NCBI GenBank assembly: GCA_048939935.1
Contig: JBHLPA010000001.1
Coordinates: 1-31,077 of the forward strand
DNA length: 31,077 bases
Reading direction: 5' to 3'
From: Promethearchaeota archaeon
GTDB taxonomy: Archaea > Asgardarchaeota > Thorarchaeia > Thorarchaeales > Thorarchaeaceae
This document shows positions 11,775 to 13,280 of this stretch, piece by piece. Positions within the stretch are counted from its first letter, which is position 1; each line of letters begins with the position of its first letter. The notes under the pieces are model-generated. The model worked only from the letters and a program-made list of their open reading frames with translations, searched no databases and was not told the origin of the DNA. The position numbers and the translations under genes were made by a program.

Positions 11775-12992
11775 TTATTTTCTCATAGCCTCCTTTGATG
11801 TGTCAAGTAATCCAGTAAGAAATTGTTCTAACATTTCAGATGGGACATCAGAGAACCCAATAAGAGTGGTTTGACCTCTTTGTCCTGAACCAGATTTCTT
11901 TGTATCTAATATGCCGTGAGAGTGAAGATCTTGCACCCATTCCCAAATTTGTGTATGTGCCCTTGGTTCTTCATAGTACTCCTCACACACTGAACGGTAC
12001 ATTTCTTCAACTTCACCTATTGTGACATAGGCACTACGAATCTCTCGAAGCTGTCGCGCAGCTGCCAACAACAAAAGCTTATGTTGTATGGGCAATGTCA
12101 CAAAGATTTCCTTTCTAAGTTCAGGATGAGTGTCTGCTTTTGCACGACGTACATAATCAGGTATTACGATATCAGCCTGATCACTATCTGCAGCTTTACC
12201 TGCTCGCCAAAGGAGTTCAATCGCATAGCGTGCATCACCATGTTCTGCAGCTATATCACAGATGACTTGGATTGTTTCATCCATCACCGTATTCTTCTCA
12301 AAAGCCATGTCTACACGGTCTCGAAGGATATCTGTTAGAGCTTCATAGTTATATTTTGGAAATCGGAGTATATTACGCTGTAGTGTGCTACGAGTACTAG
12401 AATCGAGGATATCATCATCAAGGGGAATCTCCCTACCTATCCCTATGATTGAAAGTCTTTGAGTTGCATTCAATCTATCATCCATGAGTCTTGTGAGGTC
12501 GTAAAGGATGTCAGCACCTCTTTGTCTGATGAAGTAATCAAGTTCATCGAGAATCAGGAGCAAATATTGATCTTCTTCATCAAGCACCTCAACTAGCATC
12601 TGTAGAAGTTCATCAGGAGAGTGTCCTCTTCTTGGAAACTTTGGTTTGAATTCTCGTAATGCTCGAAGAAATACTAGATATTCAGTTTTGTTTACACGAC
12701 AATTTATGTGAATGCTATGAAGTCGGATATTTCGTCTTTTTGCAGCCTGAATCATTTGCTCAGAAAATCGTTTTGCGACCGCTGTTTTCCCAGTCCCAAC
12801 AGACCCTTCAATGATAAATCTGTGACTTGTTCTTCCTGGTGAACTAATCAGGGTTTTGAAACTTTGAACGAGTTTCCTCATCTCAGATTGTCTATGGGGT
12901 AGATTTTCTGGTACATAGTCGATAGATAGGAACTGTTCAGATTTGAATATACTCCGTCTACTGAGTTCATCTTCAACATAGTCATGAGGCAT
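11775..12992 (-). CDS. cdc6: Orc1/Cdc6 AAA+ protein, Orc1-2/ORC2-like clade
   Basis: YVPENLPHR, Walker A GSVGTGKT, Walker B LDELD, GDARYAIELL. The wHTH segment PRAHTQIWEW...SGSGQRGQTTLI resembles crenarchaeal Orc1-2/ORC2 (clade call from recalled sequences). Confidence 0.95.
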   Translation of the reverse strand: MPHDYVEDELSRRSIFKSEQFLSIDYVPENLPHRQSEMRKLVQSFKTLISSPGRTSHRFIIEGSVGTGKTAVAKRFSEQMIQAAKRRNIRLHSIHINCRVNKTEYLVFLRALREFKPKFPRRGHSPDELLQMLVEVLDEEDQYLLLILDELDYFIRQRGADILYDLTRLMDDRLNATQRLSIIGIGREIPLDDDILDSSTRSTLQRNILRFPKYNYEALTDILRDRVDMAFEKNTVMDETIQVICDIAAEHGDARYAIELLWRAGKAADSDQADIVIPDYVRRAKADTHPELRKEIFVTLPIQHKLLLLAAARQLREIRSAYVTIGEVEEMYRSVCEEYYEEPRAHTQIWEWVQDLHSHGILDTKKSGSGQRGQTTLIGFSDVPSEMLEQFLTGLLDTSKEAMRK

Positions 12993-13038: not shown

Positions 13039-13084
13039 GAGTATACGATTAAATGTATAACAAAAGGGGAGGTTACCGAAAGTA

Positions 13085-13161
13085 ATGGCGAGCTCCTAAC
13101 TCAAGATCCATATCATCGTCATTTCTGACTCATAGGGGTCATAGCAATCATCGCTCGCCAT
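13085..13161 (-). ncRNA. Candidate box C/D-like sRNA with two kink-turns
   Basis: Minus strand reads ATGGCGAGC-GATGATTG-[11 nt]-ATGA-GTCA GAAA TGAC-GATGATAT-[12 nt]-AGGA-GCTCGCCAT. It has a 9-bp terminal stem, an internal GAAA-capped stem and two GAT-bulge/GA.GA motifs. TATA TTTAAG at 13183-13188 is about 25 nt upstream, and a pyrimidine tract CCTCCCCTTTTG follows. Confidence 0.6.
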
Positions 13162-13203
13162 GGACCTATCTGTTTATTCTCCCTTAAACCTGACGAAAAG
13201 CAA

Positions 13204-13280
13204 TGGTGCGACCGCCGGGATTTGAACCCGGCTTGGAAGCTTGGGAGGCTTCCGTCCTAACCAGGCTAGACCACGGTCGC
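13204..13280 (-). tRNA. tRNA-Gly(CCC), intronless, encoded CCA
   Basis: GCGACCG/CGGTCGC acceptor, GAAGC-CT CCC AA-GCTTC anticodon arm (anticodon 13243-13245), CCGGG-TTCAAAT-CCCGG T-arm. Confidence 0.97.

Follow-up and report, generated by a model that had tools for sequence, protein, structure and literature searches.

The 31,077-nucleotide (nt) window analyzed here, the whole stretch from position 1 to 31,077 of contig JBHLPA010000001.1 (GenBank: GCA_048939935.1), belongs to a Thorarchaeota metagenome-assembled genome that is 74% complete. On its minus strand, a tRNA-Gly(CCC) gene (13204..13280; called by ARAGORN and Rfam) lies upstream of the orc1/cdc6 open reading frame (11775..12992). Between the two, on the same strand at 13085..13161 and clear of the tRNA, sits a 77-nt element that had been predicted from sequence alone to be an unannotated small RNA (sRNA) with two kink-turns and its own promoter; all of the features listed in that original prediction were found in place. 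The data presented below indicate that the element is probably a trans-acting box C/D sRNA, transcribed from its own promoter, that guides 2'-O-methylation of the tRNA wobble nucleotide and docks on tRNA introns through its second guide.

The sRNA as a whole is supported by covariance models and by covariation. Read from 13161 to 13085, its layout is AUGGCGAGC-G-AUGAUUG-CUAUGACCCCU-AUGA-GUCAGAAAUGAC-G-AUGAUAU-GGAUCUUGAGUU-AGGA-GCUCGCCAU. The 5' arm (AUGGCGAGC, 13153..13161) and 3' arm (GCUCGCCAU, 13085..13093) of the terminal stem form 9 bp and make up the canonical stem of kink-turn 1. A bulged G at 13152 precedes box C (AUGAUUG, 13145..13151). Tandem sheared pairs are predicted between the GA of this box at 13149-13148 and that of box D (AGGA, 13094..13097); the latter GA is invariant and abuts the terminal stem. 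Box C is followed by the 11-nt D' guide (CUAUGACCCCU, 13134..13144), with its core UGACCCC, and by box D' (AUGA, 13130..13133), in which UGA is invariant. The hairpin GUCA-GAAA-UGAC (13118..13129) is the canonical stem of kink-turn 2, and a second bulged G (13117) leads into box C' (AUGAUAU, 13110..13116) and the 12-nt D guide (GGAUCUUGAGUU, 13098..13109; core GAUCUUGAGU). The sRNA strand folds at -26.4 kcal/mol, with a z score of -4.1 relative to 200 shuffled sequences. The minimum free energy structure pairs the two spacers with each other; this pairing was rejected because no compensating change accompanies variation at the base before D', and the spacers are conserved in single-stranded form. 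No Rfam family (release 15) matched the sRNA, even at E <= 10, and the neighboring tRNA gave the only match, in keeping with the expectation that annotation would overlook the element.

Upstream, a putative promoter block (UUUCGUCAGGUUUAAGGG, 13181..13198, minus strand) contains the TATA box TTTAAG at 13188-13183, centered approximately 26 nt before the first base of the stem, a spacing that fits an archaeal promoter. In the 24 congeneric genomes compared, the block is kept as TTTCGTCAGGTTTAAGGG, ...GTTTATCGG or ...TTTATCGG, and the roughly 20 nt that separate it from the start of the RNA vary freely, which is consistent with the predicted promoter. The predicted downstream pyrimidine tract (CCUCCCCUUUUG) is also present, but its conservation is confined to the genus. 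Immediately after the sRNA (13062-13084, minus strand: UACUUUCGGUAACCUCCCCUUUU), the sequence AYACTTTCGGYAACCTCCCC is conserved within the genus and differs in other genera (CACUAU, CACCAA and others); it may be a trailer or terminator of the sRNA or a site upstream of cdc6. The 12-mer ATTACTTTCGGT lies at the 3' edge of the sRNA.

Across the same 24 congeneric genomes the 77-nt block is near-invariant, whereas its flanks are 78–96% identical, and it is conserved above the level of cdc6 third codon positions. All four GA dinucleotides are invariant in these sequences, and covariation is too sparse at this depth to reach significance. With an order-level covariance model the sRNA was detected in 80 of 87 genomes and all 17 genera, including every high-quality genome (24/24), and it is single copy except in three genomes with two or three copies. 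A phylum-level model detected the sRNA in 92 of 151 Asgard genomes, representing 41 of 52 genera, each time as exactly one copy. In the order alignment (A2), 10 of the 16 base pairs show changes on both sides, and none of 500 shuffles reached the observed score. In the phylum alignment (A3) all 16 pairs covary, including 9/9 of the terminal stem and 4/4 of the hairpin, and 84.5% of cells are paired compared with 53% after shuffling. Both alignments were fitted to the model, which favors structure, but controls with slid pairing partners still scored far lower.

Within the terminal stem, G-C pairs change to G-U and A-U, and C-G pairs to U-G and U-A; the G-U intermediates can pair on the minus strand only, which fixes the transcribed strand. 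The stem is 7–9 bp long. Next to it come a 3-nt bulge, RAU, and an invariant GA, across from which a second invariant GA abuts the helix. The nine pairs predicted for the element are present but are not conserved in full: relatives keep seven or eight, and the outermost A-U is paired in less than half of them. Every aligned homologue keeps the GA of box C, and in kink-turn 1 the 4b-4n pair, which follows the tandem G·A pairs, switches between U-A, A-U and G-C. The first two positions of box D vary (CUGA, UUGA, AUGA, ACGA and others) in step with positions 5 and 6 of box C, and two relatives (L105 and L106) combine the canonical AUGAUGG with CUGA. At the internal kink-turn, all four hairpin pairs covary (GUCC/GGAC, AAUCC/GGAUU, GCCC/GGGC, GUUU/GAAC, GAAU/AUUC); the covarying stem is 3–4 bp, its loop is variable in both sequence and length, and it leads into an RAU bulge and then GAU, with invariant GA dinucleotides. 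Box D' reads CUGA in L104–L106 and in many homologues outside Thorarchaeota, and the AUGA core of box C' (13116-13113), including its GA, is invariant in the genus and reads GUGA in the Thorarchaeota relative L099. Spacer lengths are kept among Thorarchaeota homologues, with length differences confined to the hairpin loop.

Many relatives have GUGAUGA at the junction of stem and box, and this was considered as an alternative box C, but it conflicts with a covarying pyrimidine–purine pair that closes the stem (C-G, U-G, U-A). Given this covariation, and since nothing may separate the GA of box D from the stem, it is the second GA that the kink-turn uses. The predicted box register (C AUGAUUG, D AGGA, D' AUGA, C' AUGAUAU) therefore agrees with the covariation. 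On this comparative evidence, the element has box C/D sRNA anatomy, in which the C'/D' motif forms a full kink-turn. Genes for two of the core proteins are present in the same genome: fibrillarin at C93:6621-7289 (284 bits) and Nop5 at C93:7411-8088 (224 bits).

The original prediction had suggested a search for targets of the two spacers, and both gave matches among tRNAs. The D guide core is invariant in the 41 order-level and 27 phylum-level homologues inspected. The guide is complementary to nt 30–41 of tRNA-Leu(CAA), the anticodon arm (G30-A-C-U-C34-A-A-G-A-U-C-C41), with which it forms 12 consecutive pairs, 11 of them Watson-Crick plus a terminal G·U. In this duplex C34 faces the fifth base upstream of box D, the position expected for methylation (the N+5 rule). 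A tRNA-Leu(CAA) with GG(A/G)CUCAAGAUC is encoded in the host genome (C7:7221-7286) and was found in 60 of 87 order genomes, using a pattern that misses a quarter of cases.

Three further tRNAs can pair with the D guide with nt 34 in the same register: tRNA-Leu(UAA), with a G·U at U34; elongator pre-tRNA-Met (ACUCAuaAUCU), with two mismatches at nt 36–37; and pre-tRNA-Trp (gCUCcAG|AUCU), with one mismatch and with the first four bases of the intron included in the duplex. Predicted duplex energies were -16.9 kcal/mol for tRNA-Leu(CAA), -14.9 for tRNA-Leu(UAA), -14.2 for tRNA-Trp and -12.2 for tRNA-Met. No dedicated guide for C34 of tRNA-Met or tRNA-Trp was found in the host genome when at most one mismatch and a box context were required, and no such guide is conserved across the order. 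Recurrent matches in relatives (ATTATGAGTTCTGA) were unrelated sequences lacking C/D box features, several of them consistent with gene starts, and a lax scan allowing two mismatches returned noise only.

The D' guide keeps the core UGACCCC unchanged throughout the order. The complement of this core, GGGGUCA, occurs in the sense orientation in three pre-tRNA introns of the host genome, those of tRNA-Met (gene at C302:11890-12032), tRNA-Leu(UAA) (C302:16052-16170) and tRNA-Trp (C93:4239-4376, miscalled by ARAGORN), and in no other intron of the tRNAs called by ARAGORN in this genome. Counting both strands, the genome contains 147 copies of the heptamer; approximately 0.005 occurrences are expected in the 157 nt of intron, and the probability of finding it in all three introns is approximately 3e-9. 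It is also absent from the intron of tRNA-Leu(CAA), the perfectly matched target of the D guide. Among the 87 order genomes, GGGGUCA was present in the tRNA-Met intron of 77 (16 of 17 genera), in the tRNA-Leu(UAA) intron of 63 and in the tRNA-Trp intron of about 45, the last count being based on recognizable introns and a noisy pattern. The motif is situated 10–30 nt inside the tRNA-Met intron, and a covarying hairpin separates it from the 5' splice site; intron sequences flanking the motif either vary freely or form covarying hairpins.

Outside Thorarchaeota, the D' guide was compared with the tRNA-Met intron of the same Asgard genome, and the two sequences change together. In G120, guide AAAUCUGACCCCA matches intron UGGGGUCAGAU over 11 bp; matches of 10 bp were found in G030 (GGUCUGACCCC with GGGGUCAGAC) and G026 (UCUGACCCCU with AGGGGUCAGA), and one of 10 bp including two G·U in G153 (GUCUGACCCC with GGGGUCGGAU). 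Guide and intron pair over 8 bp plus a G·U in G036 (CUCUGACCCC with GGGGUCAGG), 8 bp in G167 (AGGGCCUU with AAGGCCCU) and 7 bp in G188 (UAGCCCU with AGGGCUA). For genus g37 the comparison was made between congeners, with the guide from G152 (AUCUAGCCCUU) and the intron from G110 (AAGGGCUAGAU) giving 11 bp. Several of these are independent double changes and so are not explained by inheritance of the motif or by an intramolecular role in the intron. The docking motif was not found in tRNA-Leu(UAA) outside Thorarchaeota, where the genes are intron-less or have introns lacking it; docking on the tRNA-Met intron therefore appears to be phylum wide, and docking on tRNA-Leu(UAA) and tRNA-Trp looks like an addition in Thorarchaeota.

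Other roles for the D' guide and for the intron motif were considered and rejected. A 9-nt match to 23S rRNA (approximately nt 157 in the congener G001) falls within a variable helix and is missing from other Asgards, and a match in three genomes outside Thorarchaeota (GGGUCAGA, approximately nt 2436) is absent in G036, G207 and a Thorarchaeota genome and does not covary with the guide. The intron motif could also have been the guide of an intronic half C'/D unit, but the AUGAAGA...CUGA flanks seen in G001 are not conserved. No UGAUGA-type box was recognized in the tRNA-Trp intron of Thorarchaeota, which is approximately 60 nt long, and no U39 guide for tRNA-Trp was seen.

The fold, its conservation, the complementarities and the guide–intron covariation are established by sequence analysis; from these we infer assembly of a ribonucleoprotein (RNP), methylation and the role of the intron motif as an anchor. 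In the proposed mechanism, the sRNA would bind L7Ae at both kink-turns, together with Nop5 and fibrillarin. The D guide would pair with the anticodon arm of tRNA-Leu(CAA) and direct 2'-O-methylation of C34 (Cm34) at the fifth position from box D. The same guide would act through weaker pairing on elongator pre-tRNA-Met and, in Thorarchaeota, on pre-tRNA-Trp and tRNA-Leu(UAA), with UGACCCC anchoring the RNP on the GGGGUCA of the unspliced intron so that bipartite recognition compensates for the imperfect primary duplex. Because the anchor is intronic, as is part of the primary duplex on tRNA-Trp, methylation would have to precede splicing. A more specific version of this model is that D' is a guide dedicated to intron docking, which throughout Asgards co-evolves with a short motif of the tRNA-Met intron and allows a guide optimized for tRNA-Leu(CAA) to methylate C34 of pre-tRNA-Met, and that the motif was then copied into the tRNA-Trp and tRNA-Leu(UAA) introns of Thorarchaeota, where it replaced the otherwise universal intron-encoded tRNA-Trp guide. 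We put this version forward tentatively, as a serious possibility with the balance slightly against it.

Several observations weigh against a guide serving multiple tRNAs. This copy has non-canonical boxes (C AUGAUUG, D AGGA). The tRNA-Met duplex has its two adjacent mismatches just 3' of the target base, and the G·U of the tRNA-Leu(UAA) duplex falls on the target base itself; in work with archaeal sRNPs in vitro, mismatches or G·U pairs near the target usually impair methylation. These defects make Cm34 or its uridine counterpart (Um34) less certain on tRNA-Met, tRNA-Trp and tRNA-Leu(UAA) than Cm34 on tRNA-Leu(CAA). Applied to the D' guide, the N+5 rule would place methylation on a G in the intron, which has no obvious use: since the D' guide pairs with an intron, the base at N+5 is not a plausible end-product target. 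In G025 the guide and the intron match over only 6 bp, and the incompleteness of the host genome makes the missing dedicated guides weak evidence. The strict linkage to cdc6 described below is likewise not explained by a guide RNA. The alternative offered in the original prediction, a regulatory RNA bound by L7Ae, is not needed to account for the data, although binding of L7Ae would be implied under either reading; all sequence tests agree with the other role it had suggested, a 2'-O-methylation guide.

The weaker duplexes are also the basis of a narrower explanation, in which only C34 of tRNA-Leu(CAA) is methylated and the pairing of D' with introns serves some end other than wobble methylation of those tRNAs, such as methylation of the intron or a chaperone or timing role in folding and splicing of the pre-tRNA. 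Full complementarity to the D guide is indeed restricted to tRNA-Leu(CAA), and the mismatches and G·U pairs near nt 34 of the other three tRNAs would be expected to impair catalysis. In addition, a folding-chaperone role has been proposed for dual guides that act at two neighboring sites in a single RNA (PMC7994747). This explanation seems unlikely, given that the intron motif is found in exactly those pre-tRNAs whose anticodon loops resemble the D target, with nt 34 in register, and is absent from other introns. Moreover, other archaea use C/D RNPs to form Cm34 in tRNA-Met and tRNA-Trp (PMC2584109, PMC4033218), and the searches described above yielded no other guide for either tRNA.

We consider it much less likely again that the element acts in cis on cdc6, as a leader or upstream region such as an L7Ae-binding kink-turn switch, a replication origin or an Orc-binding element. 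Such a role would explain its invariant position: it lies 90–110 nt upstream of cdc6 on the same strand in 30 of 30 loci from 15 other Thorarchaeota genera (L081–L110) and in family f2; in an Asgard family outside Thorarchaeota (G131) it is again upstream of cdc6, by 335 nt. tRNA-Gly, by comparison, is the upstream neighbor in 9 of the 30 loci. However, G030 has no cdc6 within 1.5 kb of the sRNA, and cdc6 has a conserved TATA-like sequence of its own (CTTTTAAGG, 13030-13022) approximately 30 nt before its ATG, which suggests that its mRNA may be leaderless; separate TATA-like boxes for the sRNA and cdc6 indicate two transcription units. The G-U intermediates and loop insertions or deletions point to an RNA element and not a DNA site, and a cdc6 switch would leave unexplained both the covariation with the tRNA-Met intron and why conservation is highest in the two single-stranded spacers, which match tRNAs. 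The 21-codon reading frame MASDDCYDPYESEMTMIWILS (13161-13096), the conservation of which had been named as grounds for abandoning an RNA, is open in the host genome, but its translation is already refuted by the comparative sequences. Its ATG is replaced by TTG, GTG, ACG or CAG among the 24 congeners, one of which has a 1-nt deletion inside the frame, and differences of 1–3 nt in the hairpin loop shift the frame in other genera. Variable sites change the encoded amino acid (TAT to AAT or GAT), and the substitutions track base-pairing rather than codon position.

A trans-acting wobble guide of the kind favored here has counterparts in other archaea. In Pyrococcus, as far as the outline in PMC7994747 goes, four separate C/D sRNAs serve nt 34 of tRNA-Leu(CAA), of tRNA-Leu(UAA), of tRNA-Met and of tRNA-Trp. 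Going by that description, the Asgard RNA is of the same class (C, D', C' and D boxes and spacers of approximately 12 nt), would carry out the same chemistry (2'-O-methylation at the fifth base from box D) and has the same four tRNAs and wobble nucleotide as candidate targets. The arrangement differs as described there, in that one of the four Pyrococcus sRNAs is the tRNA-Trp intron itself, whereas one trans-acting RNA appears to cover the set in Asgards and fits only tRNA-Leu(CAA) perfectly. Second guides of tRNA-targeting sRNAs in Pyrobaculum have been described without a target (PMC7994747), whereas the second guide of the Asgard RNA has one.

Guides for tRNA-Met are known from the sR-tMet family of Haloferax volcanii, Pyrococcus (sR49) and Methanosarcina (Grosjean et al., 2008; PMC2584109, Additional file 5), and these also pair with intron bases and so act before splicing (PMC2584109). 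The Asgard RNA resembles them in being a stand-alone C/D sRNA that would act on intron-containing elongator pre-tRNA-Met, with intron bases paired and methylation ahead of splicing. In sR-tMet, however, a single guide, (G/A)CC(C/G)UAUGAG(U/C), pairs contiguously with CACUCAUA (tRNA-Met nt 31–37) and the first intron bases, and the D' spacer is not conserved between species (PMC2584109). The Asgard D guide (GGAUCUUGAGUU) is instead of the tRNA-Leu(CAA) type, with two mismatches to tRNA-Met, and its D' spacer is a separate guide that covaries with the intron motif. The archaeal guide for C34 and U39 of tRNA-Trp has been described as "always intronic" (Haloferax, Methanosarcina, Pyrococcus and others; PMC2584109, Additional file 4). 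It too would be matched in targeting C34 before splicing and in pairing with intron bases beside the 5' splice site, but the Asgard sRNA is intergenic, between tRNA-Gly and cdc6, the tRNA-Trp gene is on another contig (C93), and the tRNA-Trp intron of Thorarchaeota carries the GGGGUCA docking motif for a trans-acting sRNA. The Asgard RNA is therefore not a member of the sR-tMet or the intronic tRNA-Trp family.

In eukaryotic box C/D small nucleolar RNAs, accessory pairing near the modification duplex is thought to strengthen weak duplexes or to aid folding. Such pairing, and that of archaeal dual guides (PMC7994747 for the latter), is on rRNA, whereas here it would be on a tRNA intron that is later removed and would use the canonical D' position. 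In humans, Cm34 of elongator tRNA-Met is guided by the box C/D RNA SNORD97/SCARNA97 (Vitali and Kiss, 2019; PMC6601510). Archaea and eukaryotes thus share the tRNA-Met wobble target but, compared by description, SNORD97/SCARNA97 acts on an intron-less tRNA through one antisense element, unlike the Asgard RNA.

No description of C/D sRNAs or wobble guides in Asgard archaea was found in the literature searched. As far as we have checked, the target set is classical, and what is new is the use of one RNA for several tRNAs together with an intron-docking D' guide that co-evolves with its site. Wobble C/D guides are known from Euryarchaeota and, for tRNA-Met, from humans, and Asgards are the closest prokaryotic relatives of eukaryotes; the sRNA therefore bears on the form taken in archaeal relatives by the RNA-guided tRNA-Met Cm34 system that eukaryotes still use. 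The covariation between guide and intron points to docking as a function of some archaeal tRNA introns, one that puts modification ahead of splicing. It also gives a role to an otherwise orphan second guide and would illustrate how bipartite recognition lets a single guide serve several substrates. If the more specific version of the model is correct, tRNA introns are retained partly because they address a shared modification RNP to its substrates, and a single sRNA does the work of four in Pyrococcus. The RNA is also a conserved marker that current annotation and Rfam miss.

Some further observations were made on the tRNA genes. The tRNA-Trp gene with the docking motif lies approximately 2.3 kb from the nop5-fibrillarin gene pair on C93, which places a putative C/D RNP substrate beside the enzyme genes. 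Owing to its intron of approximately 60 nt, tRNA-Trp(CCA) is miscalled by ARAGORN as tRNA-Ala(CGC) or tRNA-Arg(CCU), both in the host genome and at a congener locus (L126). ARAGORN detected 10 tRNAs in the host assembly without the intron option, which overlooks several tRNAs with introns, and 19 with it, and approximately half of the detected tRNA genes in this genome and the congener G001 (L117–L141) have introns of 8–63 nt. A candidate tRNA-Sec(UCA) was called at C303:2158-2248, consistent with selenocysteine use in the lineage. In G026, an Asgard with a small genome of 1.4 Mb, tRNA-Met (L233, C1 approximately 581300-581480) seems to have extra insertions in the D and T regions beside the anticodon-loop intron, which suggests that it is a multi-intron tRNA gene.

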